Source: Candidatus Omnitrophota bacterium
GTDB taxonomy: Bacteria > Omnitrophota > Gorgyraeia > Pluralincolimonadales > Pluralincolimonadaceae
Length of the DNA: 64,000 bases
Assembly: GCA_041651455.1 (NCBI GenBank)
Contig: JBAZJG010000002.1
Span: forward strand, 127,892 to 191,891
Reading direction: 5' to 3'
Made by a program: the position numbers and the translations under genes
In this document: positions 19,593 through 35,665 of the stretch, one piece after another
Numbering within the stretch: position 1 is the stretch's first letter
Layout: each line of letters starts with the position of its first letter
The notes under the pieces: generated by a model
The model's database searches: none
Seen by the model: only the letters and a program-made list of their open reading frames with translations
What the model was told of the DNA's origin: nothing

Positions 19593-22500
19593 ATGGAACT
19601 CAACGCAAAACAAAAATTAGCCGCGGAGACGCTTGAAGGGCCCGTATTGGTGCTGGCGGGGCCGGGGACGGGAAAGACCGAGCTCTTGTCGGTGCGCGCG
19701 GCGAATATCATCAAGTCGAAGAAGGCCAGGCCCGAGAATATCCTCATCCTGACCTATACAAATGCGGCCGCGAAGGCAATGAAAGAGCGGCTCGTTAAGA
19801 TCCTCGGTGCTGACGCCTATAATATCGAAACGGCCACATTCCACAGCTTTGCGAATACCGTAGTCCTGGAGAGCGACGAAGCCGCCGAATACATCCAGGA
19901 ACGCGTCCAGATAACCGATATCGAGCAGATAAAGCTTCTCGAATACATCCTTGATAACACCGACGGCATCGACAAGATCCGCCCGTTCCGCGCGCCGTAC
20001 GCTTTCGAGCGCGAGATCAGCCAGCGGATAACCGAGCTAAAGAGGGAAGGCGTCTCGCCCTCGCGGTTCGCCGAGATAATCGAAAAAACCTCGCCAGACG
20101 GCGCCTACATCGAAGAAAAGCACATCGAACGCCTCTCTGCCCTCGTCACCGTATATAAGCTGTACGAAGAGTACAAAGCGGGTAAAAATAAGGCACTTTT
20201 CGATGACCGAGGCCGCTACGATTACGATGACATGATACTTTTCGCGGTCGAGGCGATCCGCAACGAGCCCGAGCTTGCGCGCGCGCTGCGCTCACAGTAC
20301 ACCTACATCATGGTCGATGAGTTCCAGGACACCAACGGCGCCCAGATGGACCTGCTTTTTGAGCTATTAGGGAGCCATGCACAGGGGGGACACCCCTCCG
20401 GCCCAAATATTTGCTGCGTGGGCGATGACGACCAGTCAATTTTCCGCTTCCAGGGGGCGTCTGTCGCGAATTTCCGTGAATTAAAGAAGAGATTCCCGAA
20501 ATTACAGGAGATCCCGCTCGAGAAGAACTACCGCTCGACAAAAGAAATAATCTCCCTATCCGAAAAAATAATAAATAATCTTCCGGTCAAGGAACGAGTC
20601 CACGCCAAAGAGCTCGCTCCCGAGAAAGATTTCAAGAAGAAGACGATAGAATTCGACGAATTCACGACCGAGACTGAGGAACTGCTCTTCATCGCGCGCC
20701 GCATTAAGGAGATCGCGAAGAAGGAAGAGGTCCCGCTGGATGAAGTCGCGGTCCTCGTGCGCCAACGCGATGATATCCTCAAGATCGTCGACACATTCCT
20801 GCGCGCCGGCATCCCGTACGCGACCGACGGCAAGGAGGACATCGCCGGCGAAAAACGCGTCCGCCAGATGCTCGACGTGCTCTATTTCGCGCACACGCCG
20901 GATATAGAAGTTGAGCAGAAAGACGCCTATCTCTACCGCATCCTGACCGCCGATTACATGCGCATCCCGATGAACGATGTCCTGCGCTTCATCGCCGACG
21001 TCCGCGCGAAAAAGTATGAGCAGCGCAAGAAGGGCGAAGCGCCTACGATTTCAATGTTCAGCGAGTATATGGGAATGAGCCTGTCCCCCCGGAGGATGGC
21101 TCCGGCAGCTCCGGCAGCGGCGCTTGGTACACTTCTATACGAAGCGGAATCGAAGCCCGTTCACGCCATGCTCATGCAATACATCAAAGACGCCGGGGTG
21201 ATGAAGTTCATCCTCGACAAATATGATGATAACGACCTCCTGCGCATCCGCGACCTGCGCGCGCTGACGTCATTCGTCAACATGGTCAAGGAAGCCGACA
21301 TCGCGCGCCCGGGCCTGACGCTCAAGGAATTCATCGACGAGCTGGAGACGCGCAAGGCCCACGGCATGCCCCTGCAGGGCGAGCTTGTCACGGCCACGCA
21401 GGAAGGCGTGCGCATCTACACGGCCCACGGCTCGAAAGGCCTCGAATTCCACACGGTATTCATCCCGTTCTGCCTCGAGAAGAAGCGCTGGCCGAAGCGG
21501 CCGCAGGGCGTCTCGATCCCGCTCCCGCCCGAGGTCTACAAGTCGAAGGAGATCCCGACCGACAAGGAAATATTGAAACAGCTCGATTATTACGACGAGA
21601 CGCGCCTCTTCTACGTCGCCTCGACGCGCGCCAAGGCGAACCTCATCTACACCGCCAGCCCGACGGAGAGCGCGATCCCGAGCTCGTATTTGTCAGGTGT
21701 TGAAGTAAAAGGCGAGGATGAGAAAGAGGAGAATTTACTCAAGGCAGCCCTTATGACAAGTAATGAACAGGATCCATTCATAGGGACGGAAAAAGTGCTG
21801 AAAGATCTGGTGCAGGATCTCTCGCTCAACCCCACCGCGCTCAACAATTACATAAACTGCCCGCGCAAATATTTATATGACGACGTCCTGATGCTGCCGT
21901 CGGGCAAGAAGCAGTCGCTCGTCTTCGGTAACTGCGCCCACAAGGCGCTCGAGGATACCTACAATAAATTCATGAAGACCGGCAAATTCCCGGATTTCGC
22001 GTTCTTTAAGGAAGCGTTTAAGCGCGAATTAGCCCACGAAGCCCCGGAAGCGGCAATAAAGACCGCCTGCGAGCGCCAGGTCGAGACGTTCAAGGCCTGG
22101 TTCAAGGAAGAGTCGCGCCTGCCGGTCAAACCGCTCGGCCTCGAGAAGCGGCTCGTGGTCATGCTTGAAGACGACCTAAAATTTTCCGGAAAATACGACA
22201 AGACCGAGGCGATCCGCGGCGCCGAGGGCCGTGTTCGCGTCGTAGATTACAAGACCGGCGAGCCGGATAAGCACGTCAAGGGCATCAACAATTCCCTCGC
22301 GAAGAAGATCCCGGTATCAAGCGACGAATTCGAGGGCTACCTGCGCCAGCTCATCGCTTATAAGCTCCTTTTTGACAACGACAAGAATGAATCAAAAGGC
22401 CAAAAGGTGAAAGAGGGGGTGCTCGTCTTCCTCGACCCGGTCAAGGAGTCGGTCGCCAAGCACGATCTCGAAGCGGGCGAGTTCATGAAAAAGAGCGTCG

Positions 22501-22652
22501 AGCTGACCGACGATATGGTCACCGCGCTCGAGTCGGCGATAAAGGACGTCCGCCGCCGCATCAAAAAATTGGATTTCTCGAAGCTTCCCGAGCGTGTCGA
22601 TGATTTCAAAAAGTGCAAGGGCTGCGATTTCGATGATATCTGCTGGGGGTAA
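19593..22652 (+). CDS. UvrD/PcrA-type superfamily-1 DNA helicase fused to a C-terminal Cas4/AddB-like PD-(D/E)xK nuclease with a 4-Cys Fe-S motif.
   Basis: 1019 aa. Walker A AGPGTGKT and Walker B MVDEFQDTNGAQ. The C-terminus has NCPRKY, a DYK catalytic motif in VDYKTGEP, and KKCKGCDFDDICWG. Confidence 0.75.
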   Translation: MELNAKQKLAAETLEGPVLVLAGPGTGKTELLSVRAANIIKSKKARPENILILTYTNAAAKAMKERLVKILGADAYNIETATFHSFANTVVLESDEAAEYIQERVQITDIEQIKLLEYILDNTDGIDKIRPFRAPYAFEREISQRITELKREGVSPSRFAEIIEKTSPDGAYIEEKHIERLSALVTVYKLYEEYKAGKNKALFDDRGRYDYDDMILFAVEAIRNEPELARALRSQYTYIMVDEFQDTNGAQMDLLFELLGSHAQGGHPSGPNICCVGDDDQSIFRFQGASVANFRELKKRFPKLQEIPLEKNYRSTKEIISLSEKIINNLPVKERVHAKELAPEKDFKKKTIEFDEFTTETEELLFIARRIKEIAKKEEVPLDEVAVLVRQRDDILKIVDTFLRAGIPYATDGKEDIAGEKRVRQMLDVLYFAHTPDIEVEQKDAYLYRILTADYMRIPMNDVLRFIADVRAKKYEQRKKGEAPTISMFSEYMGMSLSPRRMAPAAPAAALGTLLYEAESKPVHAMLMQYIKDAGVMKFILDKYDDNDLLRIRDLRALTSFVNMVKEADIARPGLTLKEFIDELETRKAHGMPLQGELVTATQEGVRIYTAHGSKGLEFHTVFIPFCLEKKRWPKRPQGVSIPLPPEVYKSKEIPTDKEILKQLDYYDETRLFYVASTRAKANLIYTASPTESAIPSSYLSGVEVKGEDEKEENLLKAALMTSNEQDPFIGTEKVLKDLVQDLSLNPTALNNYINCPRKYLYDDVLMLPSGKKQSLVFGNCAHKALEDTYNKFMKTGKFPDFAFFKEAFKRELAHEAPEAAIKTACERQVETFKAWFKEESRLPVKPLGLEKRLVVMLEDDLKFSGKYDKTEAIRGAEGRVRVVDYKTGEPDKHVKGINNSLAKKIPVSSDEFEGYLRQLIAYKLLFDNDKNESKGQKVKEGVLVFLDPVKESVAKHDLEAGEFMKKSVELTDDMVTALESAIKDVRRRIKKLDFSKLPERVDDFKKCKGCDFDDICWG

Positions 22653-22655
22653 AAG

Positions 22656-23294
22656 ATGAAAAAATGCGTTATAACATTGGCGATTCTGTTCCTGGCTCCG
22701 CAGGCGTTCTCCGCGATGATAATGCCGCCGAAGGCATGTATCGTCCTCGCCATCGGCGAGGCCCGCACGGAAGGCGCGACACCCGCGAACACGGTCTACC
22801 CGACCGAAATAGATTTCAAAAGCATCGTACGCCACGATCGCCTGCTGACAAAAGCGAAAGTTTTCGACCTCTTCAGGTCGATAGACCCCGAAAAAATAAG
22901 GTGGTCGAACTACCAGAAGAGGGACACTCTCATCGAGATGGTCGCGCCCGACCGCATACTCTTCGCGTTCGAGGAGATCGGCGGCGGAAAGGATACGATC
23001 CCGTACGGCTACAAGTTGATCGGCATACGGATACTGCAGAGGTCCATTCCCGACGAGATCTACCTGGACGGCGACTGGATGCTCCATGTATACCTGCACG
23101 ACAGGGGCACGAAGAGCGAAGGCGCGTTCGGCCGGCTCTATTACAAGGAACGGCTCGTCCCTCCGGGCAAGGTCGGGCAGGAGGAGAATACCCCATTCGG
23201 CGTGCTGAAGTATTACGGCGAGGGCAGCAATGTCCGCTGGGCCCCTTCCGGGTGGCTTTTTAAGGACAAGGGCAAAATACCGCGTACCTATTAA
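22656..23294 (+). CDS. Secreted hypothetical protein.
   Basis: 212 aa with a signal peptide (MKKCVITLAILFLAPQAFSA). No motif was recognised. Confidence 0.45.
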   Translation: MKKCVITLAILFLAPQAFSAMIMPPKACIVLAIGEARTEGATPANTVYPTEIDFKSIVRHDRLLTKAKVFDLFRSIDPEKIRWSNYQKRDTLIEMVAPDRILFAFEEIGGGKDTIPYGYKLIGIRILQRSIPDEIYLDGDWMLHVYLHDRGTKSEGAFGRLYYKERLVPPGKVGQEENTPFGVLKYYGEGSNVRWAPSGWLFKDKGKIPRTY

Positions 23295-23311
23295 AGGCAA
23301 GGAAGGCAAAT

Positions 23312-23749
23312 ATGGCTAAAAGCACGGTTTATTCAACAATCCTTGGGCTATCGCTCATCTTTTTGCTTAACACCGTTCCTGTCTCCGCTTCGCAGATATT
23401 TAAAGCCGCCTGCACGAAGCCCGACTGCGGATTCACCGCGGAATTATGCATGGGCCCGTCAAATACATCCGATTATATCGTCGGTTATTGCACCGGCTGC
23501 GGGAAAGTCGTTTATCTTGAGTATCTCAGGGAAGGCCACCTGCCTGTTGCGCGGCTAAAGGGGAGGGAGAAACCCCCTAAACCTGCAGCACAATCCTGGG
23601 ATCCCGGTACAGGCAAGGCAGTTTCGTTGTATAAATGCCCTTCCTGCAAGAAGCCCTTCAAATCGATGTATTCGGAGAATGATTTCAAGTATTGCCCGAA
23701 ATGCGGCAGCCAGGTAAAGGTAGAAAGCACCGGGAAATTTATTGATTGA
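23312..23749 (+). CDS. Secreted Cys-rich (zinc-ribbon-like) hypothetical protein.
   Basis: 145 aa with a signal peptide and paired CxxC motifs (CTGCGK, CPSC...CPKCG). Confidence 0.45.
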   Translation: MAKSTVYSTILGLSLIFLLNTVPVSASQIFKAACTKPDCGFTAELCMGPSNTSDYIVGYCTGCGKVVYLEYLREGHLPVARLKGREKPPKPAAQSWDPGTGKAVSLYKCPSCKKPFKSMYSENDFKYCPKCGSQVKVESTGKFID

Positions 23750-23772
23750 CTTATTCCATTTTAGAGCATACA

Positions 23773-23800
23773 ATTAGAATAACAATTCCGTTATTCTAAT
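23773..23800. promoter_or_regulatory. Perfect 11-bp inverted repeat ATTAGAATAAC-N6-GTTATTCTAAT, a putative operator immediately upstream of the fic RBS.
   Basis: Seen directly in the sequence. RBS GAGGTGG at 23801-23807 and the fic ATG at 23812 follow. Confidence 0.5.
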
Positions 23801-23811
23801 GAGGTGGAACA

Positions 23812-24903
23812 ATGGCAGTACCGCATAAAGTCCCTAAACTTCCTCCGAAGATCGATTACGCCGCGCTTGTGACACAGCTGGGCCGGGCGCATAACGCGCT
23901 TGGCCGCCTGAACGGACTTATTGCTAACCTGCACAATCCCGCCCTGCTGGCGGTACCTCTGCTTACCAAAGAGGCGGTCTTGAGCTCCCGGATAGAGGGG
24001 ACAAGGGCCACGCTTGAGGAGGTCTTCGAGTATGAGGCCGCGAAGAACGATTCGGAATCGACCGAGCGCGGGAAAGACGTCCGCGAAATAATCAATTACC
24101 GCTTCGCGCTGAATACCGCCCTGAAGAACCTCGAAAAAAGGCCGCTCAGCGGGAACCTCATGAAGGAACTGCACTCCGTACTGCTCGATTCCGTCCGGGG
24201 CGCCAACAAAGACAGGGGCAATTTCAGGAAACTCCAGGTATATATCGGCAAGCCCGGGGCTTCCATAGAAGAGGCAGAGTATATTCCCCCGGCCGCGGGC
24301 CAGGTGCCCGAGCTTATGGCGGACCTCGAAAAATACCTCAACTCAGATACTGAAAAAGACCCCCTCGTCCAGATAGGCATCGCGCATTACCAGTTCGAGG
24401 CGATACACCCGTTCCTCGACGGCAACGGCAGGGTGGGGCGGCTTCTTATACCGCTTTTCCTGTATGAGCGCAAGCTCCTTTCGTATCCACTGCTTTACAT
24501 AAGCGAATTTTTCGAAGAGAACAGGGAGATGTATTATGCTCTCTTGAATGATGTCCGCCTGAAGGGGGATTGGACAAGCTGGCTCAACTTCTTCCTCGAT
24601 GCCGTAAGCGAGGAATCCGGGAAGACGCAGTCGACCGTCCTTAAGATACTCGACCTGCACAAAAAGCTCACGCAGGAAGTAATGGCCGACGGGTCAGCCA
24701 ACGCCGTAGCCCTCCTGGACATAATATTTACCACCCCGGCGGTCTCGTTCGTAAGTATCAAGGAGCGGCTTAAGGCCAAGAGCAACCAGACTATCTACAA
24801 CCTCCTGGATAAATTCATGGAAAAGGGCATTTTGAAGGAGATTCCGGGCAAGAAGAGGAACAAAGTGTATGTCTTCAGGCAACTTATGGAGATATTGAAG
24901 TAA
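23812..24903 (+). CDS. fic: Fic-family AMPylation protein (class II, with an intramolecular inhibitory helix) and a C-terminal winged-helix domain.
   Basis: 363 aa. Canonical Fic motif HPFLDGNGRVGR. N-terminal inhibitory motif SSRIEG (S/TxxxEG/N). Confidence 0.85.
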   Translation: MAVPHKVPKLPPKIDYAALVTQLGRAHNALGRLNGLIANLHNPALLAVPLLTKEAVLSSRIEGTRATLEEVFEYEAAKNDSESTERGKDVREIINYRFALNTALKNLEKRPLSGNLMKELHSVLLDSVRGANKDRGNFRKLQVYIGKPGASIEEAEYIPPAAGQVPELMADLEKYLNSDTEKDPLVQIGIAHYQFEAIHPFLDGNGRVGRLLIPLFLYERKLLSYPLLYISEFFEENREMYYALLNDVRLKGDWTSWLNFFLDAVSEESGKTQSTVLKILDLHKKLTQEVMADGSANAVALLDIIFTTPAVSFVSIKERLKAKSNQTIYNLLDKFMEKGILKEIPGKKRNKVYVFRQLMEILK

Positions 24904-24904
24904 C

Positions 24905-25276
24905 ATGCCCATACTGATCGACGGCTGGAACATGGTCCGCCAAGAAGGCTCAGGGATAGATCATGACGACGCCCTGGCCGGCGCCATGCACCTGATCGCT
25001 ATCCTGGAGAAGTTCCAGGAGTCCCACGCCGACCCGATCACTCTTGTATTCGACAGCAAGAATGAATATCTCGATATACCGAACAGGAGCACGGCAAAAC
25101 TGCATATCGTCGCGGCCCGGAACGCCGATAACTGGATCAAACGCCACATTGACAGCATCCCGCCGCGCCAGCGCCGCAACCTGCGCGTCGTCTCCTCCGA
25201 CCGCTCGCTGTATTTTTATGCGAAGGATGCGCGGGCAACGCCGATGAAATGTGAGGAGTTTTGGGAAAAATTGTAA
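24905..25276 (+). CDS. Small NYN/PIN-like (YacP-like) domain protein.
   Basis: 123 aa. The N-terminal PILIDGWNMV resembles the NYN/YacP start (LLVDGYNV). It lies 1 nt downstream of fic. Confidence 0.35.
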   Translation: MPILIDGWNMVRQEGSGIDHDDALAGAMHLIAILEKFQESHADPITLVFDSKNEYLDIPNRSTAKLHIVAARNADNWIKRHIDSIPPRQRRNLRVVSSDRSLYFYAKDARATPMKCEEFWEKL

Positions 25277-25299: not shown

Positions 25300-26133
25300 A
25301 TGAAGAAAATATCAAAGCCTGACGAAGATAATAATTTAACCTCGGCAAAGCAATTTTTAAAATGGGCTGGCGGTAAAAAAGCTTTGTTGCAAGATATTGA
25401 GAAATTCGTTCCTTCAGATTACAATAAATACTACGAACCTTTTCTCGGAGGAGGTGCCTTATTTTTCAAGCTTGAGCCAAGCGTATCGCAACTTTCAGAC
25501 ATAAACAGCGAATTAATTAATACATATCAACAAGTTAAAAATAACGTTAACGATATTATTAAACAATTAAAATCTATGAAATATAACAAAAGCACTTATT
25601 ACAAAATTCGTTCGCTTAAAACTACTGATAAAGTTGTAAGAGCCGCAAGATTTATTTATCTTAATAGAACTTGCTGGAATGGATTGTACAGAGAAAATAA
25701 GAAAGGTGAATTTAATGTTCCGATTGGCAAATATGAAAATCCCTTAATTTGCGATTCCGACAATTTAATTAATGCTAGTAGGATGTTGGAAAAAACAGAA
25801 TTGACCAAAGGCGATTTTAAGCTAGTATTAAAAAATTGCTCCAAAGGCGATTTGATATACCTCGATCCACCTTATGTTACTTCCCACAAAGACAACGGGT
25901 TCATTGAGTATAATTCTAAAATATTTTCTTTAGAAGATCAGCTTAGATTAAGAAATACTATGATACGATTAGACAAAAAAGGATGCAAGCTCATTATGAG
26001 TAATGCAGATCATAAATTTATTAAAAAAATATATAAGAATTTTAATATTAATTATGTTTCACGAAAGAGTTTAATAGCGGCAGATACTTTAAAACGTAAA
26101 GATGTGAAAGAGCTAATAATAACAAATTTCTGA
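25300..26133 (+). CDS. Dam-family (D12 class) DNA N6-adenine methyltransferase.
   Basis: 277 aa. FLKWAGGKK, EPFLGGGALFF (FxGxG) and the catalytic LDPPY motif. Confidence 0.8.
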   Translation: MKKISKPDEDNNLTSAKQFLKWAGGKKALLQDIEKFVPSDYNKYYEPFLGGGALFFKLEPSVSQLSDINSELINTYQQVKNNVNDIIKQLKSMKYNKSTYYKIRSLKTTDKVVRAARFIYLNRTCWNGLYRENKKGEFNVPIGKYENPLICDSDNLINASRMLEKTELTKGDFKLVLKNCSKGDLIYLDPPYVTSHKDNGFIEYNSKIFSLEDQLRLRNTMIRLDKKGCKLIMSNADHKFIKKIYKNFNINYVSRKSLIAADTLKRKDVKELIITNF

Positions 26134-26147
26134 AAGGAAGGTTAAAT

Positions 26148-27089
26148 ATGAAAAGTACGAAATTAGACAATATTTCTCCCGATTTAATAACTAAAAATCC
26201 AGATAACCCGAGACTAGTATTTCGTCAGGAAGAATTAGATACTCTATTAAATTCCATAAAGAAAGTTGGGATTAGAGTCCCGCTTTCAATTTACGAAGAA
26301 ACTGAAAAAAAGAAATATGTATTATTGGACGGAGAAAGACGTTGGATGTGTGCAAAAAAGCTTAATTTGGATAAAATTCCCGTAATAATTGAGCCGAAGC
26401 CATCTAGATTAGAAAATATTTTAAGAATGTTTAATATACATAATGTTAGAGTACAGTGGGATCTATATGCCACTGCACTGAAACTACAAGAAGTAAAGAG
26501 ATTACTAGAAAAAGAGGGTAAACCAGATTCCATTAAGGACCTAGCTGCTGTTACAGGAGTTTCAGAAACAACTGTTAAAAGAGCATTCGAACTATTGAAA
26601 TTACCAAAAAAATACCTTCATTTATTGGAAGAAGAGCTTAAAAGGCCTAAGTCTGAGCAAAAATTCAGCGAAGATTTTTTTCTAGAAATGATGAAAGCGG
26701 TAAAAGTGATAGAGCGATATACACCAGAAATTATCGAGAAAACGTCTAAGACAAAAATAATGGATAGTTTCAAGGACAAATATGAAAAAGGAACAATAAC
26801 AAATATTGTTAAATTTAGAAATGTGAGTAAAATCGCTCGTTCCGAAAACGCCGGCGTCCCCTCTAGTAAGGCGGTTCCGATATTGAAGAAATTAATCTCC
26901 GATCCGAAATATACAATTGATGATGCTTATCAAGATTCCGTAGCGAAAGCCTACGAGGACAGGTCTCTTACAAGAGATATTGAATCTATATCCGAGAGAT
27001 TAAGCGAAATAAATAAGAAGCGCTTGAGTCCTGAATTTAAGGCATTGCTAAAAAAAATGAAAAATATAATTGAGACATTACTAGAGTAA
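26148..27089 (+). CDS. ParB/Sulfiredoxin N-terminal-domain protein (ParB-like nuclease/CTPase fold) with a helical C-terminal domain.
   Basis: 313 aa. IRVPLSIYEE...YVLLDGERRWMCAKKL matches the ParB box II GERRxRA. Confidence 0.65.
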   Translation: MKSTKLDNISPDLITKNPDNPRLVFRQEELDTLLNSIKKVGIRVPLSIYEETEKKKYVLLDGERRWMCAKKLNLDKIPVIIEPKPSRLENILRMFNIHNVRVQWDLYATALKLQEVKRLLEKEGKPDSIKDLAAVTGVSETTVKRAFELLKLPKKYLHLLEEELKRPKSEQKFSEDFFLEMMKAVKVIERYTPEIIEKTSKTKIMDSFKDKYEKGTITNIVKFRNVSKIARSENAGVPSSKAVPILKKLISDPKYTIDDAYQDSVAKAYEDRSLTRDIESISERLSEINKKRLSPEFKALLKKMKNIIETLLE

Positions 27090-27092
27090 GCT

Positions 27093-27926
27093 ATGAAATT
27101 TGAAATTCTCGATAAAGAACTATGGCCTATCGCAAAATCTTTGATAACGCAGTATCGAAGAAAAGGATATAAAACGATATTGATAGAGAAACCTTTTGAT
27201 AGAGCTGCCTCTTTTAGGCCTACGCTAATATGCAAAAAAGGAAACGAAAATATTGCAATAGAAATTAGAAATGACCCCGTTTTTAGTGAATATTTTGAGG
27301 ATTTTGTAAAAGATTGCCTTGCGGAAAGAAGACCTGTGAAAGTTTATCTAGCTATGCCAAGTATTCTAGGTGAAGAAGAAATTGCCTTAACACATAGTTT
27401 TATGAGTAAGGCAAATGGTTATGGAGTCGGCGTATTTTTGGTTCACGAAAAAGAAGTAATAGAATATATTAAAAGCGTGAAATGTAATATGAGGATCGGG
27501 CCAAATGATTGCATAATATCTTCTCGAGGCAAGGATAAAATATTGCCAATTATTAGTAGATTTAATAAAGGCGAGCCGATAGATGCTATTCGAGATATTA
27601 CAGAACTCGTTGAAAACCTAGTAGATAATTTAGCAAAAAAGGCTTCGAAAAAAAGAAAAGTTGTTCCTAGAATTAAAGAAGTTACTGATATGAATTTTGA
27701 AACTAAAATTAATTTACTATCAGCATCTGATTGGCACGGAAAACATCAAAAAAAGCATTTTAATGAAGATTTCAAATCTGATTTGAAATCTTTCAAGGGG
27801 GCAAGGAATCTATCGCATCACCCTAGAGATAAAGTATTAAGCAAAAAATTAGAGCAACAATTAATTGAGCGCATGCTGATGGGTACGAGATTGAGCAATG
27901 ACTTGTTAGTTTGTCTGTTTAAGTAA
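27093..27926 (+). CDS. Hypothetical protein in the island, function unknown.
   Basis: 277 aa, AT-rich codon usage. It lies 4 nt after the parB-like gene, so it is probably co-operonic. No motif recognised. Confidence 0.45.
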   Translation: MKFEILDKELWPIAKSLITQYRRKGYKTILIEKPFDRAASFRPTLICKKGNENIAIEIRNDPVFSEYFEDFVKDCLAERRPVKVYLAMPSILGEEEIALTHSFMSKANGYGVGVFLVHEKEVIEYIKSVKCNMRIGPNDCIISSRGKDKILPIISRFNKGEPIDAIRDITELVENLVDNLAKKASKKRKVVPRIKEVTDMNFETKINLLSASDWHGKHQKKHFNEDFKSDLKSFKGARNLSHHPRDKVLSKKLEQQLIERMLMGTRLSNDLLVCLFK

Positions 27927-28128
27927 AGTAGTCTCAGGCATAATTAATATTGATTAATACAAAAAACTATTCAGTGAAAAATGTGCGAACCGTGCTGGTA
28001 TGAGGGATAAGGAAAGCTATGGGATAAATATATTTATGAAAGAAAATGCCTCCTTTTAGCGTCTATTGAAAAGAGGAGTAAAGAAACCTTACATTGACGC
28101 ATGAATAGGGAGGTGTTAAAATACGAAC

Positions 28129-29151
28129 ATGAACCAAAAAATTTTAGGACAATATTTTACCAAAAAAGATAGATGGCTAAAAGCCCATATTAAAGAATTT
28201 ATTACATCTAGTGGCTGTAGTGAGATTTACGATCCCTTTGCCGGGAATGGAGATTTACTAAAACTCTCTGACAGTCTTGGAATCACTAAAGTATTTGGCT
28301 TGGATATCGATCCTAAAAGAGATTTTCAAGTGAATGATAGTTTGCTAAAAATACCCACTAGAAAAAATGCGATAATAGTTACAAATCCTCCGTACTTATC
28401 TAATTATAGCGCTAAAAGAAAGGGTATTTATGATAATACAGCAAAATACTTTATTGGCTCAGAATATAATGATCTATACTTGATAGCGCTTGAAAAAATG
28501 TTGCAAGCGCAAGAATGTGTTGTTGCAATTGTTCCCGAAACCTTTATAAATAGTAATTTTAAGCATAAATATCGGTTAAATTCGATTACTATAGTAGAAG
28601 AAAATTGTTTTGATGATACAGAGACGCCGATATGTGTTCTTTGCTTTGATGGCAAGGCAAAAGGATATTCAGAAATTAAGGTATATAGAAATGACGAATA
28701 TTTAAATAATCTGGGTTATTATGAAAAATTAAGATTAAAGCCTGGAAAATACATTGCAATTTCTTTTAATGACGCTTCAGGAGATATTGCATTAAGAGCA
28801 GTAGATACGACAAATCCTAGCTCTACAATAAGATTTATGAAAAAAGAAGAGCTCGATTACGATTTAAAAGGAATAAAGGTGAGTTCTAGGTTAATAACAA
28901 TAGTAAAACTGGATAAGTTAAAAAACGATAAACTAGAATCTTATTTACGGGAATGTAATAAGATCCTAGCAAGCTATAGAGACAAAACGAATGACGTGCT
29001 TTTATCACCCTTTAAAGGAAATATGAAAAATGGTCGTAGAAGACGGCGGCTAGATTACGAAACCGCACGGGCTATACTTGAAAATGCATATAATAATATA
29101 TTTGGAGAAGAGCTATTATGGACAACGTCCTCCTATTCGAATACTCGCTAA
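28129..29151 (+). CDS. Gamma-class DNA N6-adenine methyltransferase (Eco57I/TaqI-like; type II R-M methyltransferase).
   Basis: 340 aa. Motif X LGQYFT, motif I DPFAGNGDLL and motif IV NPPY. A TTGACG -35-like box and GGGAGG RBS lie upstream. Confidence 0.75.
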   Translation: MNQKILGQYFTKKDRWLKAHIKEFITSSGCSEIYDPFAGNGDLLKLSDSLGITKVFGLDIDPKRDFQVNDSLLKIPTRKNAIIVTNPPYLSNYSAKRKGIYDNTAKYFIGSEYNDLYLIALEKMLQAQECVVAIVPETFINSNFKHKYRLNSITIVEENCFDDTETPICVLCFDGKAKGYSEIKVYRNDEYLNNLGYYEKLRLKPGKYIAISFNDASGDIALRAVDTTNPSSTIRFMKKEELDYDLKGIKVSSRLITIVKLDKLKNDKLESYLRECNKILASYRDKTNDVLLSPFKGNMKNGRRRRRLDYETARAILENAYNNIFGEELLWTTSSYSNTR

Positions 29152-30062
29152 GCAATAAAGAACAAATATTCGACGATGCCAATAAGAAGGAAATCATAGT
29201 AATTACAGATAATGCTAAGAAAAAGAACAAAGCTATTAGTGGCAATGAAAGATTAATCGAACTGATAACAGCGTATCATGCCATGTATGGTAAGCTAACC
29301 AAGAAACAGGACGATGATATTATTAAGGAAATGGATTCGATACTATTTAAAGTACAGCACATGAATTATTCTGCATTCTCGCAGTATTTTATGGTATGGG
29401 ATATGCCATACTCTGTATTGCAGACTGAAAAAGAAAAAGAAAGAATCAGACTGCTACGCGGATTGCTAATTAAATATATCAAAGATAGGCATTCGATGTA
29501 TTTGTCGCACGGTTATTCGAATATTATTTTACAGGTATTATCTGATAATTACTCACATAAAAGGAGTGGTCCCACAGGAATAAATAAAATAATTATGCTT
29601 GCTGAAAAAGCGGGATTTAAAAGATATCAAAAGGACAATAATATAGAGAAAGATTCTTTTTATCTGTTACCCGATAAAAAAGACGGAGAGAAGCACTTCA
29701 AAAATATATGTAAAATACGTGGCATTAGTTTTAAATGGAGTAAAGCAAAGCAGGGTAAAATGCCAGATTGCTATATCCAGAAAGGTTCAAAAGCATATAT
29801 AATTGAGCATAAGCATAAGAAAGGCGGCGGTGGGGGACAATACGGTGCAATTGTAGAAATAGTCGACCTGCTGAAGTACACCGATAAAAATATATCGTAT
29901 GTAGCATTTATGGATGGAGTGATGTTCAATGAGCTAATCGAAGCATCCACTGACAATAAAATGTCAAAAGCAAAAAACGATATCTATAAGTATCTTAATA
30001 AAAATAAGAACAATTATTTTGTTAATACTGTAGGATTCTCTAAGCTTCTACAAAGTATTTAA
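29118..30062 (+). CDS. Putative type II restriction endonuclease (PD-(D/E)xK), cognate to the upstream methyltransferase.
   Basis: 314 aa overlapping the methyltransferase gene end. MPDCYIQKGSKAYIIEHK fits PD...(D/E)xK. Confidence 0.45.
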   Translation: MDNVLLFEYSLSNKEQIFDDANKKEIIVITDNAKKKNKAISGNERLIELITAYHAMYGKLTKKQDDDIIKEMDSILFKVQHMNYSAFSQYFMVWDMPYSVLQTEKEKERIRLLRGLLIKYIKDRHSMYLSHGYSNIILQVLSDNYSHKRSGPTGINKIIMLAEKAGFKRYQKDNNIEKDSFYLLPDKKDGEKHFKNICKIRGISFKWSKAKQGKMPDCYIQKGSKAYIIEHKHKKGGGGGQYGAIVEIVDLLKYTDKNISYVAFMDGVMFNELIEASTDNKMSKAKNDIYKYLNKNKNNYFVNTVGFSKLLQSI

Positions 30063-30164
30063 TTGCCGGTACCTCCAATCTAAGTATGCTCTGAGCAAGT
30101 CAATTTAAAATATTAGTGACGTATAAAAAGGGGCAGTTTACAAAGCGTCCTAGAATAACTTGTT

Positions 30165-30860
30165 TTGGAAATATTTCTCGTGAAAAGGAATAAATCAATG
30201 GGGAACGATGAGATAAAGGCCTATTTTTGGAAATCAGCCGTTGAATACAGTAAAGGGGATATTACTCAACTTCTTAGCGCAAGATTATCTTGCGCAGGCC
30301 CGTTATTAAGTACTATTTTATCAGGCATCGATAATTTGGGAGGTATATGCTATAAGTTTAAAGATAATAGCAAAGCAAGGTCTATCAAATTTATGAGCGA
30401 AAAAATGAAAATACCTGCGGAGGTAGCAAACTTCCTATATTCAAGCGTAAGGTGTGGTATTGTTCACCAAGGGATGCCAAAAATTGGCCTTAAATTTTTT
30501 GTAGAATATAATCGTCTTGATAAAGGTGCTATTTTCTATAAATGTTCCGAGGGTTATATCTGGTTAAATGTTGTTGAATTAGCTTATTCTTATATTGAGA
30601 CCATTGATAGTATTAGAACAAATGCTGACACGCATATTCATTTTATTCCGTCCCCAAATGATGAAGTACAGCATATTTTTGATCAAGCCGTTAGTAAGGT
30701 TGATAAAAATATAGAAGACCTACTATTAAAGATTATGGAAAAAAAAGAATCTGAGCAAATTGAAAAATTAGAACGCGGCAAAATCACGGCAATAAGTAGT
30801 AGTTCAGCATTTACTCCAGACAATACTTTAATTAGTTGCACTTATCCAATAGAATTATAA
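30165..30860 (+). CDS. Hypothetical protein in the island, function unknown.
   Basis: 231 aa. A more likely start is the internal MGNDEIKAY (ATG at 30198, RBS AAAGGA 8 nt upstream). No motif recognised. Confidence 0.4.
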   Translation: MEIFLVKRNKSMGNDEIKAYFWKSAVEYSKGDITQLLSARLSCAGPLLSTILSGIDNLGGICYKFKDNSKARSIKFMSEKMKIPAEVANFLYSSVRCGIVHQGMPKIGLKFFVEYNRLDKGAIFYKCSEGYIWLNVVELAYSYIETIDSIRTNADTHIHFIPSPNDEVQHIFDQAVSKVDKNIEDLLLKIMEKKESEQIEKLERGKITAISSSSAFTPDNTLISCTYPIEL

Positions 30861-30999
30861 ATTTATTTTTGTGTTTAGGCAGCGTTTTATATACATAGAA
30901 GTACAAAGAATGCAAAAGGGGCAAGATGCAAAGAATCCTGTAGTGTCATGTTTACAAGAGCGCCTCATAATATAATACGTCCCTAGGGGATAAGTTAAA

Positions 31000-32427
31000 A
31001 TGGCATTAACAAAAACAAAAGCATATTTTCGCGAAATACTTGTGTCTAATTTTACTTTTTCTCAAATTCATAACTTAATGGAACAAGCGGGTATCGACAG
31101 AGTTCATGGAGCTGGACAAAATTACTTCAAAGGTAAGCCGTCGAAACCCTCTCTAGTTGATGAATATTATAAAGGAGCCGAGCGCGATAGAAATGGAGAT
31201 GAAAAATTATTAGAGGCTATCAAATTATTATTATCCAAATACGAAGGCCTTAACCCTCCTACCGAAGTAGAAAACCTAATAAAAGCATTAAAAGACGAAA
31301 AACAATCGGCTATACTGGCTCCTTATGGTGAGGCCATCAATAGTGTTAGGACACATATCGAGTCTACCGAGCATAGTACAGAAAAATCAGAAGAATTGCG
31401 CGATGTATTTTTATGTCATGCCAGTAAGGATAAGGAAGATTATATAAGGCCATTCTTAGAGAGGTTAAAAAGAGAAAAAATTACTTACTGGTATGATGAA
31501 GCCGAAATAAAATGGGGAGACAGTTTGGTAGGCAAAATAAGCGAAGGGTTAAGAAAATCAAAATATATAATATTATTTATAAGTAAAAATTTTCTTGAAG
31601 GGAATTGGACAGAAAAAGAATTAAATGCAGCTTTGGGTATGGAAATTGGGTCTGGAGGCATAAAAGCTCTTCCTTTATTTATAGGAGATGCCTCAGATAT
31701 AAAACTGATTCTTGAAAAATATCCGTTATTGGCTGACAAAAAATATGAAAAATGGAATAAGGGCATCGAAGCATTAATCGGTGCTTTAAAAATACGCCTA
31801 GGTGAAAACGTGGGTTATGCGGGAACAATTATGAGAGCAACTGAAAAGCGCGAAGGGACTAGTAAAGAAAACAAAAAGGAACTTCATGTAAATTACAAGA
31901 TATTATCAAATGCAATAATAGGCGGCATTGCATTTATTTCTGTAGGTTTTACGTTACTAGCCATTAATTTTAACTTCTTCAATGCACCTAATAAAACCTC
32001 GACATCTATACCAAAGGTACATATTTCTCAGGAATATCCTTCTTCGCAGGGGTATTCTTATAATCAATATATTGATCTAACAGCAGGAGATCCGGCTGTT
32101 ATGACTTTATTATCAGAAGATCAGCCAATGTGGCTTGGGATGATTAATGTCGATACTTTTAATATAAAAAACCCTATTTTATTTTTAAACTTTGATGGAA
32201 ATGTTAATGTCGATGTTAAACGTCCCGAATCTGATAGATGGGCAGAAATGGATCCAGGGAAACAGTATAACATTAGAATTAATGACGAGATTCAACCTGG
32301 AAATAGAGCAAAATTACCCCCCTTTTATGTCAGATTCCAAAAAGCGGGAATCTATCATGTGTTATATGCAATATCGACGGACGATAGTTTTCCAAGAAGG
32401 GGCTCTTTTGATATTAAAGTAAAATAG
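31000..32427 (+). CDS. TIR-domain protein with a single transmembrane helix and a C-terminal domain of unknown function.
   Basis: 475 aa. The TIR core DVFLCHASKDKEDYIRPFLERLKREKITYWYDEAEIKWGDSLVGKISEGLRKSKYIILFISKNFLEGNWTEKEL spans about aa 135-260. A transmembrane helix IIGGIAFISVGFTLLAINF lies near aa 300. A TATAAT box is at 30971-30976. Confidence 0.75.
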   Translation: MALTKTKAYFREILVSNFTFSQIHNLMEQAGIDRVHGAGQNYFKGKPSKPSLVDEYYKGAERDRNGDEKLLEAIKLLLSKYEGLNPPTEVENLIKALKDEKQSAILAPYGEAINSVRTHIESTEHSTEKSEELRDVFLCHASKDKEDYIRPFLERLKREKITYWYDEAEIKWGDSLVGKISEGLRKSKYIILFISKNFLEGNWTEKELNAALGMEIGSGGIKALPLFIGDASDIKLILEKYPLLADKKYEKWNKGIEALIGALKIRLGENVGYAGTIMRATEKREGTSKENKKELHVNYKILSNAIIGGIAFISVGFTLLAINFNFFNAPNKTSTSIPKVHISQEYPSSQGYSYNQYIDLTAGDPAVMTLLSEDQPMWLGMINVDTFNIKNPILFLNFDGNVNVDVKRPESDRWAEMDPGKQYNIRINDEIQPGNRAKLPPFYVRFQKAGIYHVLYAISTDDSFPRRGSFDIKVK

Positions 32428-32815: not shown

Positions 32816-33568
32816 ATGGAGAAGTACGGTTTCCTGCGCAACGCGCAGATAGTGATTTTGGGGATATGTTTTGTAGTGGCGGCGATAGGCTCAGCGGCGA
32901 TATTGACCGACGGGATGGTGAAGTTCAAGAAGGCCTCGGCAGAGGTGATAAACGTCACCGGCTCGGCCGAGAAGAGGATAACGTCGGATTACGCGGTATG
33001 GACGGCCGAGTTCTCGGCGCGGGACCCGCAGATGAAGGCCGCGTTCGCCAGGTTAAAAGAGGACACGGCCAAGGTCAGGGCCTACCTCGCGTCCAAAGGG
33101 ATAACCGAAGGCGAGATGATCGTTTCGCAGGTGGAGACGGCGGTCATCTACAAGAAGAACGAGAAGGGCATCGCCACCAACGAGATCGAGGCCTATTCCT
33201 TAAGCCAGGGGATAGAAGTGCGCTCGGCCGACGTCGCCAAGATAACCGCCGTGTCGCGCGAATCGACGGGCTTGATCGAGCAGGACATCCGGTTCGTTTC
33301 GCACCCGCCGCAGTATTTTTACACCAAGCTGGCAGAGTTGAAGCTCGAGATGTTAGGCGCGGCCTCGGCCGACGCCAAAAAACGGGCCGAACAGATAGCG
33401 TCGGCGTCCGGCAACAGGGTCGGCAGGATACGCTCGGCCGATATGGGCGTCTTCCAGATAACGCCGGTCAATTCGACCGAGGTCTCGGACTGGGGCAGTA
33501 ACGACACCTCATCGCTCGAGAAGAAGGTCTTCGCGGTCGTCCATGCGGATTTTGCGATAACGGAATAG
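32816..33568 (+). CDS. SIMPL-domain (DUF541) periplasmic/membrane protein.
   Basis: 250 aa with an N-terminal transmembrane helix and SIMPL-like spacing. RBS AAGGGGAG. Confidence 0.6.
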   Translation: MEKYGFLRNAQIVILGICFVVAAIGSAAILTDGMVKFKKASAEVINVTGSAEKRITSDYAVWTAEFSARDPQMKAAFARLKEDTAKVRAYLASKGITEGEMIVSQVETAVIYKKNEKGIATNEIEAYSLSQGIEVRSADVAKITAVSRESTGLIEQDIRFVSHPPQYFYTKLAELKLEMLGAASADAKKRAEQIASASGNRVGRIRSADMGVFQITPVNSTEVSDWGSNDTSSLEKKVFAVVHADFAITE

Positions 33569-33587
33569 GGGCGGAATATAGCAGATC

Positions 33588-33920
33588 ATGCCCAAACGCC
33601 TTAAATGCCTCAAACCGGTAGTCGACTCGCGCACGAGGGTGCTGATACTCGGTTCGTTCCCCGGGCCGGAGTCGCTGGCGAGGCAGCTCAGATAATAATA
33701 TCAAAAACCCCGAATTTAATGATATACTATCGCTGTTAAAGGCGCATCCGAAGATCAAAATGGTATGCTTTAACGGCAGGAAGGCGGAAGAGGCGTTCCG
33801 CAGGGCGTTCGGCAGGCATCTGCCGGACGGCATGATCCTGAAGCCGCTGCCTTCAACGAGCTCCGCTAACGCGCAATTATCACCGGAAGAAAAGAAAAGG
33901 ATATGGCTTCGCGTATTCTC
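33588..33920 (+). pseudogene. Frameshifted, degraded hypoxanthine/uracil-DNA glycosylase (UDG family 6-like HDG) pseudogene.
   Basis: The N-terminus MPKRLKCLKPVVDSRTRVLILGSFPGPESLARQLR runs into TAA TAA. The +1 frame continues ...KNPEFNDILSLLKAHPKIKMVCFNGRKAEEAFRRAF...LPSTSSANAQLSPEEKKRIW, matching the HDG C-terminus (FNG...LPSTSPANA). The break is in an AT-rich patch near 33690-33700. Confidence 0.5.
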
Positions 33921-35054
33921 AAATATCTGACGGTCGTATTGTCCTGCATGATGCTTGCCGGCTGCGCGTCGCTTCCCGTGCATAAAGGCCCGTCATATTC
34001 CCTCGATGATATCTATAAGCGCCTGAGTTATAAGACCGACGGCGATTACAGGGTAGTCGACATCTTTTACGCGACGAGCCGGGAAGGCAGCAAACCCAAA
34101 CTTGCCAAAGAGACCGCATACGGCACCTTAAATATCAGGATAGACCCGAGGGTCAGGATAGGGACGATGCTGCCGGACCAGCTCAAGAGCAAGGGCATCC
34201 TGGAGCTCCGGGACACGAACAAGCTGGAACCCGACGCTTTCATAAAGCGGCTCTCCGCGGCTATACAGGCGTCTCCCCATAAATCCCTGCTCGTGCTCAT
34301 ATTCGGCTATAAGGACGGTTTTGAGGCCACGGCGATGAAGGCCGCGTATTTCGCGTACCTTCTTGATGTCGATACGCCTGTGTTATTGTTCGATTGGCCC
34401 GGCGACCAGCCGGTCAGCATCGGCGGTTATATGAAGGCGCAGTCGCTTGCCTCGGCCTCGGGGCCGTACCTGGCGGAGGTGCTCGCGAAGGTCATACGCG
34501 AGGCCAAGCCGGAGAAGGTATGGATAGAGGCGTCGAGCCTCGGATGCCAGGTCGCCTGCGACGCGTTTGGGGAACTCTATAAATATCCCGACTTTGTCGA
34601 TATCGATACCGAGATAGACCACGTGATACTCGCGGCTCCCGACGTCGGCAGTGACGAGTTCAGGGGGAAGTTCAAGGACGAGCTGATGGCTTTGTCGAAT
34701 AAACTCACCGTCTATGTATCCTCCGACGATAACGCCCTTCTGATGAGCGGTTTCATAAACGGCGAGAAGAAGCTCGGCCGGGTGAAACTGCGGGTCAAGG
34801 ACCCGGAACAGCTCGAGGAGGCGAGGGCGCTGCTGTATTTGAAATCGCTCGCGCCGGAGCGGCTGACGGTCATAGATGTCACGCCGATCAATAACGCGAG
34901 CTTCAAGCACGGCTATTACCTCGAGTGCCCGGGCTATTACGATGATTTTTACATGCGGATATTTGACACCGAGCCTCGGATAAACAGGCATCTCTACCTG
35001 CTCAAGACCGCCGAAGGCGCGGATTACTGGGTCATGCAGGACCCGAAAGAATAA
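33903..35054 (+). CDS. Lipoprotein of the alpha/beta-hydrolase superfamily (DUF900-like).
   Basis: 383 aa with lipobox MLAGC and a Ser in GDQPVSIGGY. Family assignment is tentative. Confidence 0.45.
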   Translation: MASRILKYLTVVLSCMMLAGCASLPVHKGPSYSLDDIYKRLSYKTDGDYRVVDIFYATSREGSKPKLAKETAYGTLNIRIDPRVRIGTMLPDQLKSKGILELRDTNKLEPDAFIKRLSAAIQASPHKSLLVLIFGYKDGFEATAMKAAYFAYLLDVDTPVLLFDWPGDQPVSIGGYMKAQSLASASGPYLAEVLAKVIREAKPEKVWIEASSLGCQVACDAFGELYKYPDFVDIDTEIDHVILAAPDVGSDEFRGKFKDELMALSNKLTVYVSSDDNALLMSGFINGEKKLGRVKLRVKDPEQLEEARALLYLKSLAPERLTVIDVTPINNASFKHGYYLECPGYYDDFYMRIFDTEPRINRHLYLLKTAEGADYWVMQDPKE

Positions 35055-35665
35055 TGTGCGGAAGGTTTACCCTCTATAAAGCCGGCGACGGCACGATAAA
35101 GAAGAAATATTCGCTGACGAAGGTGACGTTCAAGCTCGCGCCGCGCCGAAATATCTCGCCGCAGGAAGATATCCCGGTCATACTTAACGATACGCCGGAT
35201 ACGCTCTCGCTCGCCAGGTGGGGATTCATACCGCATTGGGCCAAGGACGGCTACGACGTCCACGCGATGATAAACGCGAGGGCGGAGACGCTCGCTGAAA
35301 AACCTTTCTTCCGCGATTCGGCCCGCTCGCGAAGGTGCATAATCCCGGCGGACGGGTTCTATGAATGGCAGGCCCCGGCAGGCGGCAAGGGCCGCAAGGT
35401 CCCTTACAAAATAACGATGAAGGACGGCGGCTTATTCTCGTTCGCGGGGGTCTGGGACCTCTGGGAAAAAGAAGGCCAGCGGCTCGTCAGTTGTGCTATA
35501 ATAACTACTGAAGCTAACTCACTGGTCAAAAAGATACACGAACGGATGCCCGTGATATTGCCCGACGGCTCGGAGAAGGCGTGGCTCGGTTCCTACGACG
35601 CAAAACTCTTAAAACCATTCGACCCCGGCATGATGAAGGCGGAGGTTTCTGACCCCGATGAATGA
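35054..35665 (+). CDS. yedK: SOS-response-associated peptidase (SRAP, YedK/HMCES family) abasic-site sensor.
   Basis: 203 aa. Signature N-terminal MCGRFT (catalytic Cys2). Conserved downstream motifs (RWGFIPHWAKD, PADGFYEW, ERMPVIL). Confidence 0.85.
   Translation: MCGRFTLYKAGDGTIKKKYSLTKVTFKLAPRRNISPQEDIPVILNDTPDTLSLARWGFIPHWAKDGYDVHAMINARAETLAEKPFFRDSARSRRCIIPADGFYEWQAPAGGKGRKVPYKITMKDGGLFSFAGVWDLWEKEGQRLVSCAIITTEANSLVKKIHERMPVILPDGSEKAWLGSYDAKLLKPFDPGMMKAEVSDPDE

Follow-up and report, generated by a model that had tools for sequence, protein, structure and literature searches.

A TIR protein with a predicted membrane helix and a probably extracytoplasmic β-sandwich in a low-GC island of an Omnitrophota bacterium

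Introduction

What does a TIR domain do in a bacterial protein in which it is followed by a membrane helix and a further folded domain? The question is raised by a gene for a 475-aa protein on a contig of a Candidatus Omnitrophota bacterium, of which a 64-kb stretch (the window) was analysed. To our knowledge, the bacterial immune sensors characterised so far detect infection almost without exception inside the cytoplasm, and so do all characterised TIR systems that we found. An inspection of the letters (the sequence-only reading) had proposed either a standalone membrane-associated TIR sensor or effector, or the core of a two-gene system with the open reading frame (ORF) upstream; the evidence collected here favours the standalone protein. 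Our best explanation, put forward as a tentative one, is a single-gene, membrane-anchored TIR NADase of the abortive-infection type, with its activation coupled to an extracytoplasmic binding domain. The order of its parts (helical N-domain, TIR, flexible linker, one membrane helix, Ig-like β-sandwich) is well supported, and we infer NADase activity and a role in defence. Ordered by weight, the alternatives considered below are sensing by the N-domain, unlinked signalling, an exclusion or decoy module, a non-immune role and a two-gene system. A protein of 100% identity (P0001) is already recorded from a Candidatus Omnitrophota metagenome-assembled genome (MAG), where it is named only generically, as 'toll/interleukin-1 receptor domain-containing protein'.

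Results and Discussion

The TIR domain and its predicted catalytic glutamate

The TIR core described in the sequence-only reading was confirmed by profile, sequence and structure searches. Pfam TIR_2 (PF13676) matches residues 136-232 with E=8e-18 (65.5 bits, cutoff 28) and Pfam TIR (PF01582) matches with E=1.4e-9 (38.5 bits, cutoff 21.3); by the curated Pfam threshold, the protein belongs to the TIR superfamily. The nearest solved structures by sequence in the Protein Data Bank (PDB) are AbTir (7uwg, E=1e-20), BtTir (7uxr), BtpA/TcpB and PdTIR, and the same group is nearest by structure, with target-normalised template modelling scores (TM-scores) of 0.83-0.90. These TIR domains are 24-37% identical to the one studied here over ~135 residues, share its W-x3-E motif and likewise follow a helical region. 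Unlike the 475-aa protein, the solved entries have no membrane helix or ectodomain after the TIR.

A Glu at the position of the NADase catalytic residue had also been noted. In the PDB sequence search, E207 in 'NW203-T-E-K-E207-L' aligns with the Glu of AbTir 'DWTNYEL', which we take to be the catalytic residue of AbTir. W203 and E207 are invariant across the four homologues with a transmembrane (TM) anchor (alignment A3), all of which thus carry W-x3-E. In NADase TIRs, this motif (W71/E75) constitutes the ligand-binding and catalytic pair (PMC7075850). It is well supported that the TIR domain is genuine and looks catalytically competent, and we treat it as a predicted NADase.

Among PADLOC models, the TIR is matched by PDC-S66 (1e-33), RT-TIR_XII (2.5e-24) and ThsB1 (8.5e-18). 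The NCBIfam model Retron_TIR_antiphage ('TIR domain-containing anti-phage reverse transcriptase') matches at 5e-38, in its TIR portion only. PDC-S66 and RT-TIR (UG/Abi class XII), the best TIR profile matches, resemble the 475-aa protein as single-gene systems of defence islands in which the TIR is the presumed effector. However, only positions 123-241 of the 282 in the PDC-S66 profile, the TIR, are matched, here and in all relatives tested, and the match is thus not full-length. For RT-TIR (NF042941), the alignment covers only positions 326-460 of the 464 in the model and scores 131, where the cutoff is 600, and no reverse transcriptase was found by Pfam.

The helical N-terminus of the sequence-only reading is reproduced in the AlphaFold2 (AF2) model, for which per-residue confidence is given as the predicted local distance difference test score (pLDDT; Table 1). 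This N-domain (residues 1-124) gave no Pfam match even at E<=5 and no structural match among the top PDB matches. It is 46% identical to the N-domain of the homologue P0002.

Table 1. Features of the TIR gene, its protein product and the surrounding island, in window coordinates
Feature	Position	Strand	Basis and remarks
TIR-TM-ectodomain gene, 475 aa	31000..32427	+	ORF list, coordinates verified; ATG start; TAG stop 32425-32427
N-terminal all-helical domain, residues 1-124	31000..31371	+	AF2: six helices in residues 2-124, pLDDT 60-90
TIR domain, residues 134-266, AbTir/BtTir/BtpA-like NADase type	31399..31797	+	Pfam, PADLOC, NCBIfam, PDB; AF2 pLDDT >90
GAA codon of E207, predicted catalytic glutamate	31618..31620	+	Alignment with AbTir; W203 at 31606-31608
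Disordered K/E-rich juxtamembrane linker, predicted cytoplasmic, residues 267-298	31798..31893	+	AF2 pLDDT <50 for residues 273-302
Predicted single TM helix, residues 299-327, YKILSNAIIGGIAFISVGFTLLAINFNFF	31894..31980	+	Kyte-Doolittle, AF2, homologues
Predicted extracytoplasmic Ig-like/cupredoxin-like β-sandwich, residues 340-475	32017..32424	+	AF2; opens with family motif SQEYPSSQGY
Low-GC island, seven co-oriented genes, TIR gene last	25300..32427	+	Composition; Pfam, PADLOC, NCBIfam scans
D12-class Dam-like methyltransferase	25300-26133	+	
ParB_N/HTH protein	26148-27089	+	
277-aa protein, weak AHJR-like nuclease and HEPN_Apea-like matches	27093-27926	+	
Eco57I-like methyltransferase, 340 aa	28129-29151	+	
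314-aa ORF without family match	29118-30062	+	
Upstream ORF, no Pfam match	30165..30860	+	231 aa from TTG; 220 aa from ATG at 30198 (NCBI call)
40-nt element upstream of TIR gene	30914..30953	+	Imperfect direct repeat (D1) of 30126-30165, 70% identity

The membrane helix and the predicted topology

The single TM helix of the sequence-only reading is backed by hydropathy, by the model and by homologues. The protein has one Kyte-Doolittle peak (2.11 over 19 residues, 306-324), the AF2 model contains an isolated helix at residues 299-324 flanked by disordered segments, and each of the three homologues of the same layout (P0002, P0003 and P0004) has a corresponding hydrophobic segment. Hydropathy revealed no N-terminal hydrophobic segment or signal peptide in the first ~300 residues. 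Since this region lacks a signal peptide and a TIR needs cytosolic NAD+, the helix would serve as an internal signal-anchor. The most likely topology is N-in/C-out: the TIR would be cytoplasmic, and the β-sandwich would lie on the outer side of the cytoplasmic membrane.

A family of β-sandwich domains behind membrane helices

The C-terminal part is somewhat smaller than the ~165 aa first estimated: 148 aa follow the helix, of which 136 aa form a folded β-sandwich (AF2, pLDDT 92). Structure prediction and structural search, both suggested in the sequence-only reading, yielded a confident fold, and the structures most similar to it are those of extracellular binding modules such as YcnI, cohesins, integrin and macroglobulin domains. 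The domain had been called non-homologous, which it is not. An exhaustive phmmer search of 1.84 billion representative proteins found a family of 25 representatives at a threshold of E<=1e-3, of which 17 also pass E<=1e-10. The family has no Pfam entry and is defined here by alignment A1; A1 is too divergent for locus scans, for which the trimmed alignment A4 was used. Other members are 81-340 aa long, with one outlier of 1,347 aa. In the 22 members examined by alignment, the domain lies at the C-terminus or within ~30 residues of it and starts with the conserved motif '[ILV]-x-Q-E-Y-P-S-S-Q-G-Y'. The 475-aa protein shows the features that characterise the family, namely a C-terminal domain of ~140 aa, a QEYPSSQGY-type motif, the invariant Trp and Phe positions and a preceding membrane helix.

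A hydrophobic helix precedes the domain in nearly all members, often behind an N-terminal stub of 3-30 residues only, and ~24 representative proteins carry the TM and β-sandwich module alone, almost without a cytoplasmic part. In P0087, a signal-peptide or lipobox-like start takes the place of the helix, and in members with several helices, helix counts and charge patterns, as read from the sequences, are consistent with a domain outside. Mainly because the family domain follows a membrane helix or, in P0087, the lipobox-like start, and because of the patterns in multi-helix members, the C-terminal domain of the 475-aa protein is probably extracytoplasmic. The family thus seems built to sit outside the membrane, which supports the explanation favoured here. 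Because similarity among members extends through the helix region (a 'YFNN'-like motif follows the helix), helix and β-sandwich appear to have been fused to the TIR as one unit.

The existence of a free-standing module gives rise to an alternative in which the TM and β-sandwich module is itself active, as an envelope protein of the superinfection-exclusion kind or as an 'integrated decoy' of a phage target, and the TIR adds a suicide output. Its occurrence alone in ~24 representative proteins would point to an autonomous function in the envelope, and the apparent fusion as a unit fits as well. The genomic surroundings can be read the same way: one stand-alone member (locus L023) adjoins an N6_Mtase/Eco57I-type enzyme and a weak BstXI-like ORF, a second (L028) lies after a type I HsdR-S24 fusion, so that two are found beside restriction-modification (R-M) genes, and the TIR-less ectodomain gene P0054 (L004) adjoins a tRNA-like sequence (~4525-4615, judged by eye), a common type of island insertion site. 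However, no member of the family was found on 2.9 million viral contigs, nor on sequenced phages or plasmids, where only the TIR part of the protein finds matches, and these are the usual home of exclusion genes. Moreover, no function is known for any family member, and the alternative overlaps with our preferred explanation, as the ectodomain binds something outside in both. We regard it as improbable. A phage or exclusion-gene origin of the ectodomain family was itself considered and rejected: besides the missing viral-contig matches, BFVD returned generic Ig-like matches only.

The L004 tRNA-like sequence sits between P0054 and a 220-aa ORF downstream of a seryl-tRNA synthetase gene. The N-terminal region of P0054 has no clear membrane helix, and P0054 may be what is left of a truncated gene at a site of island insertion. 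The 220-aa ORF is not related to the ORF upstream of the TIR gene in the window (BLASTP E=0.64), and the equal length is coincidental.

The layout recurs in homologues with different N-domains and ectodomains

The whole protein has 52 homologues, none of which covers more than 59% of it; the TIR-helix-ectodomain layout is shared by three of the 52 (P0002, P0003 and P0004). P0003 (459 aa) consists of an N-domain, a TIR, one helix and a β-sandwich. Its N-domain is unrelated to that of the 475-aa protein and reads as winged-helix-like, its ectodomain is remotely related to the β-sandwich of the 475-aa protein and falls in the same family (hhalign 96%, E=4.9e-9), and a single BLASTP high-scoring segment pair spans query residues 133-413, from the TIR through the helix into the ectodomain. 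In P0002 (747 aa) and P0004 (617 aa, likewise from Omnitrophota), the same TIR and a helix are combined with another ectodomain of ~420 aa. Assignment of this ectodomain to the β-sandwich family was rejected (hhalign probability 0.2%); it is LamG/ConA-like by sub-threshold Pfam matches only (17-18 bits, cutoff 27.6) and had no match in the PDB sequence search. It is strongly supported that the same order of TIR, helix and ectodomain recurs in independent homologues. Identity between proteins of this layout is 64% for the TIR and 29% for the shared-family ectodomain (BLASTP), a pattern that would be expected of a conserved output with a fast-evolving or exchangeable sensor.

At the P0004 locus (L011 5980-6310, equivalent to L001 ~9680-10000), a remnant of the N-domain is left, with an in-frame stop ('LIK*FS') and loss of the first ~30 codons. 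The gene restarts at 'MKSETEV', and the 617-aa ORF for TIR, helix and ectodomain is intact. Because the N-domain has decayed here and the rest has not, this locus points to the trio of TIR, TM helix and ectodomain as the functional core.

These comparisons bear on the alternative to which we give most weight, albeit as an unlikely one. Here, helix and ectodomain only localise and restrain the TIR; either the N-domain senses or proteolysis frees the TIR, and assembly and NAD+ depletion follow. Such a role of the N-domain would agree with its variability (helical in the 475-aa protein and P0002, winged helix-turn-helix-like in P0003, HTH_17 in the soluble relative P0010), which is how sensor domains behave in other TIR proteins. 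The disordered residues 267-298 lie exactly between TIR and helix and could be a protease site, and in Dictyostelium TirC, removal of the TM helix unleashes filaments and toxicity (PMC13142454). On the other hand, the P0004 locus lacks a functional N-domain and keeps the intact 617-aa ORF, and a mere anchor needs neither a conserved, well-folded 136-aa ectodomain nor the large replacement of it in P0002 and P0004.

In a pattern scan of 185,579 species genomes, the layout was found only at the P0004 locus of Omnitrophota. The scan returned 11 other loci: seven encode intact soluble proteins of ~310 aa with a PF27176-type tail, and the remaining ones are a 273-aa variant, a glycosyltransferase-like fusion and two truncated ORFs. 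The genes of TIR homologues have 33-36% GC irrespective of their flanks. In the same TIR clade, P0044 and P0046 have C-terminal tails with several hydrophobic segments (multi-pass) rather than a single helix and ectodomain; this is a different TIR-membrane fusion, possibly a pore-type effector.

No conserved partner gene

The absence of a ThsA (SIR2/SLOG) partner from the island was also found by Pfam, as none of the seven island genes encodes a SIR2, SLOG or Macro domain or any other domain known from Thoeris effectors. There is no ThsA-type effector next to P0002, P0003 or P0004, and no ThsA-like protein among the Pfam-scanned immediate neighbours of five soluble relatives. The sequence-only reading had stated that homologues always encoded next to ThsA would make this an ordinary Thoeris system; no ThsA-like gene was seen at the homologue loci examined, and ordinary Thoeris was rejected since no effector neighbour occurs at any of them. 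The neighbours differ from locus to locus: P0004 is surrounded by type I R-M, OLD/TOPRIM and metallophosphatase/SMC-like genes and a ParB_N-methyltransferase, the P0002 gene follows a YgjP-like gene, the P0003 gene lies at a contig end, and the scanned neighbours of the soluble relatives include type I HsdR, an integrase, an ApeA-HEPN protein and housekeeping genes. In all-against-all BLASTP of the island against the P0002, P0003 and P0004 loci, the TIR gene was the sole match. That the TIR-TM-ectodomain gene has no conserved partner gene is strongly supported.

It is of low probability, in our estimation, that the protein is a dispersed Thoeris-like signalling TIR which makes a signal of the cyclic ADP-ribose (cADPR) type, or another NAD-derived one, at the membrane for an effector encoded elsewhere or by an unrecognised neighbour. 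The closest solved TIRs, AbTir and BtTir, are producers of cADPR isomers. PADLOC ThsB1 models match the TIR (8.5e-18), and the C-terminal PF27176 domain of the soluble relatives matches a ThsB model. Thoeris effectors are moreover very diverse and include proteins of unknown function (10.64898/2025.12.03.692087). Yet neither SIR2, SLOG, Macro nor any recurring neighbour was found at the four TIR-TM loci or among the scanned neighbours at the five soluble-relative loci, and the best profile matches are to single-gene categories (PDC-S66 and RT-TIR 'single gene').

The two-gene system with the upstream 220-aa ORF, the other proposal of the sequence-only reading, fared worst among the alternatives and appears very improbable. 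The genes are adjacent, on the same strand and 139 nt apart, and they share a 40-nt element, which is found in the window only at 72 nt before the start codon of the 220-aa ORF and at 86 nt before that of the TIR gene. The 64 kb contain exactly two copies of the core of this element, AAAAGGGGCA-N5-CAAAG, where shuffled sequence has a mean of 0.22, and the core is absent from the 29 other loci fetched; the element may be a shared promoter or operator. The upstream ORF nevertheless belongs to an uncharacterised family (~220 aa, 26 homologues). In none of eight loci (L006-L010 and L030-L032) does a member of this family neighbour a TIR gene, tblastn with the TIR protein found nothing there, and the upstream genes of other TIR-TM genes are unrelated to the upstream ORF or without assignment (YgjP-like, SbcC-like). 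Members of the family occur singly, in the company of genes of defence or toxin-antitoxin type (AAA_15, DUF499/DUF1156, MNT-HepT, AbiEii, insertion sequence elements), and the upstream ORF may itself be a defence-island gene that works alone.

For the soluble TIR+PF27176 relatives, an ORF of ~300 aa was observed downstream of the TIR gene in each of two Atribacterota-type MAGs (L013 7036-7932, without Pfam match, and L015 7028-7930). Both lie after an HsdR-sized gene, a type I HsdR by Pfam in L013. This ORF could be a conserved partner of the soluble subfamily.

A model for activation by an envelope cue

We propose that the tethered TIR domains would rest in an inactive state, monomeric or loosely associated, since characterised TIR NADases act only when self-associated in ordered assemblies. 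An assembly requirement for NADase activity applies to SARM1, AbTir, TIR-SAVED and TIR-STING. The ectodomain would bind a multivalent envelope cue, most plausibly a phage component exposed at adsorption or genome entry. Once bound, the receptors would gather within the membrane plane, which would bring the TIR domains together, and the assembled TIRs would start to hydrolyse NAD+, by which the infected cell would be stopped (abortive infection). Such a logic would correspond to the ligand-induced proximity of IL-1R and TLRs, with reversed domain order and with an enzymatic TIR instead of an adaptor. Several reported properties of other TIR proteins are in line with this model. The activity and toxicity of Dictyostelium TirC depend on filaments and are restrained by a membrane tether (PMC13142454). 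Single-protein TIR systems of E. coli defend by abortive infection, for which the catalytic residues of the TIR are required, and some E. coli TIR systems respond to tail-tube or tail-fibre proteins (PMC11350192). The genomic context also speaks for defence, with methyltransferases and nuclease-like genes in the island and R-M genes next to P0004 and to stand-alone ectodomain genes.

Several points weigh against this explanation. The positive-inside bias is weak, with 3 versus 2 K/R residues flanking the helix in the 475-aa protein and 69 versus 55 across the β-sandwich family. The variable cytoplasmic N-domain could be the true sensor. TIRs of the AbTir type produce cADPR isomers, and a signalling role rather than NAD depletion is compatible with our evidence. 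Only four proteins with the layout were found, two of them from the same metagenome, and with such rarity selection for a receptor function cannot be shown statistically. Finally, the host is an uncultured Omnitrophota bacterium with uncharacterised envelope biology and phages.

A more specific version of the model is that of a bacterial transmembrane pattern-recognition receptor: the Ig-like ectodomain would sense a component of a phage, or of another invader, during entry of the genome or earlier, and clustering would directly activate the cytosolic TIR NADase. We consider this version rather doubtful. If it were true, some bacteria would couple an envelope-level cue to NAD+-based suicide or signalling, and the layout with a binding domain outside and a TIR inside would have arisen in prokaryotes as well as in animals, here with an enzymatic TIR. 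The protein would then represent the IL-1R/TLR logic in prokaryotes, with ectodomains that can be exchanged, and would join the small number of bacterial immune sensors directed at the outside of the cytoplasm. Ectodomains appear to have been swapped on a TIR-helix core that is itself conserved, which makes specificity accessible to simple tests. For the time being, the practical value is modest, as the family is rare and known only from uncultured organisms.

A membrane protein without immune function, which acts in the envelope or in host interaction of a possibly host-dependent Omnitrophota cell and uses the TIR as an NAD-consuming or scaffolding module, has to be considered as well. The closest solved TIRs include the virulence-associated BtpA/TcpB, and YcnI-like and cohesin-like folds serve metal handling and adhesion. 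We nevertheless think that there is only a slim chance of such a role: the gene lies in a foreign, AT-rich R-M island and its homologues in defence islands, the TIR would face the cytoplasm of the producer itself and no secretion signal is present, and the distribution is patchy and rare, unlike that of a housekeeping function.

Comparison with known TIR systems

Like Thoeris (types I-XI), the 475-aa protein has a bacterial TIR with a catalytic Glu in a defence island and is matched by ThsB models (8.5e-18). It differs in that no effector gene is adjacent here or at the homologues and in that the TM helix is on the TIR protein itself, and we do not assign it to Thoeris. In Thoeris, TM helices are common in effectors and are not placed on the TIR protein (10.64898/2025.12.03.692087).

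With the IL-1R family and TLRs, the protein would, in its predicted topology, share a single pass and a cytosolic TIR, with IL-1R also an Ig-like ectodomain (PMC7075850), and it would share the proposed proximity logic. However, its TIR is N-terminal and its ectodomain C-terminal, the reverse of the receptor order, the TIR is an ordinary one of the bacterial enzymatic type, and the ectodomain has no detectable homology to the Ig domains of IL-1R or to leucine-rich repeats beyond a generic β-sandwich similarity. The protein falls outside these families by such features, and the likeness is an analogy, not family membership.

Dictyostelium TirC is, as predicted for the 475-aa protein, a membrane-tethered TIR NADase with a single helix, the tether of which controls oligomerisation and toxicity; it differs as a eukaryotic protein with a bacterial-origin TIR of the TIR-STING lineage, an N-terminal helix and no ectodomain (PMC13142454). 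E. coli TIR-I to TIR-IX, which were compared with the 475-aa protein by description only, are single- or two-protein TIR defences that act by abortive infection and depend on catalytic residues. One of these new systems contains a TM segment, for which the carrier protein is unspecified and no folded extracytoplasmic domain is described (PMC11350192). The statement of the sequence-only reading that known prokaryotic TIRs are soluble or fused to SIR2, STING or SLOG was thus too broad, given this TM segment and the multi-pass tails of P0044 and P0046; what stands is the novelty of a single pass with a folded ectodomain. A full-text search of the literature for TM-anchored bacterial TIRs returned plant and animal usage only. 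The new element is the single pass in combination with a folded ectodomain, a layout that is undescribed in bacteria in the literature searched.

The low-GC island and its surroundings

The island extends over ~7 kb and has a GC content of 33%, compared with 56% on either side, with sharp borders in composition. Horizontal transfer of the TIR gene within a restriction-modification island is the best explanation for this setting. No tRNA was found in the 64-kb window, no integrase in the island, and no convincing direct repeats flank it. A promoter and terminator scan gave counts equal to the shuffled expectation and is uninformative.

The first three island genes (25300-27926; methyltransferase, ParB_N protein and AHJR-like protein) are separated by gaps of 14 and 3 nt, which suggests one operon. 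They are possibly an unclassified methylation-linked defence module. A fusion of ParB_N and N6_N4_MTase was also seen directly 3' of the TIR-TM gene in L001 (12098-13378). The Eco57I-like methyltransferase and the 314-aa ORF (28129-30062) overlap by 34 nt, as one would expect for a type II R-M pair in which the endonuclease is novel.

To the left of the island (19593-25276) lie a 1019-aa ORF that looks helicase-nuclease-like by eye, a gene for a Fic family protein (23812-24903; NCBIfam 5.6e-61, under the equivalog cutoff) and a 123-aa ORF without NCBIfam match. To the right (32816-35665), a SIMPL/DUF541 protein and a DUF900 α/β-hydrolase are encoded, together with an ORF starting with 'MCGRF' that resembles, by eye, an SOS-response-associated peptidase.

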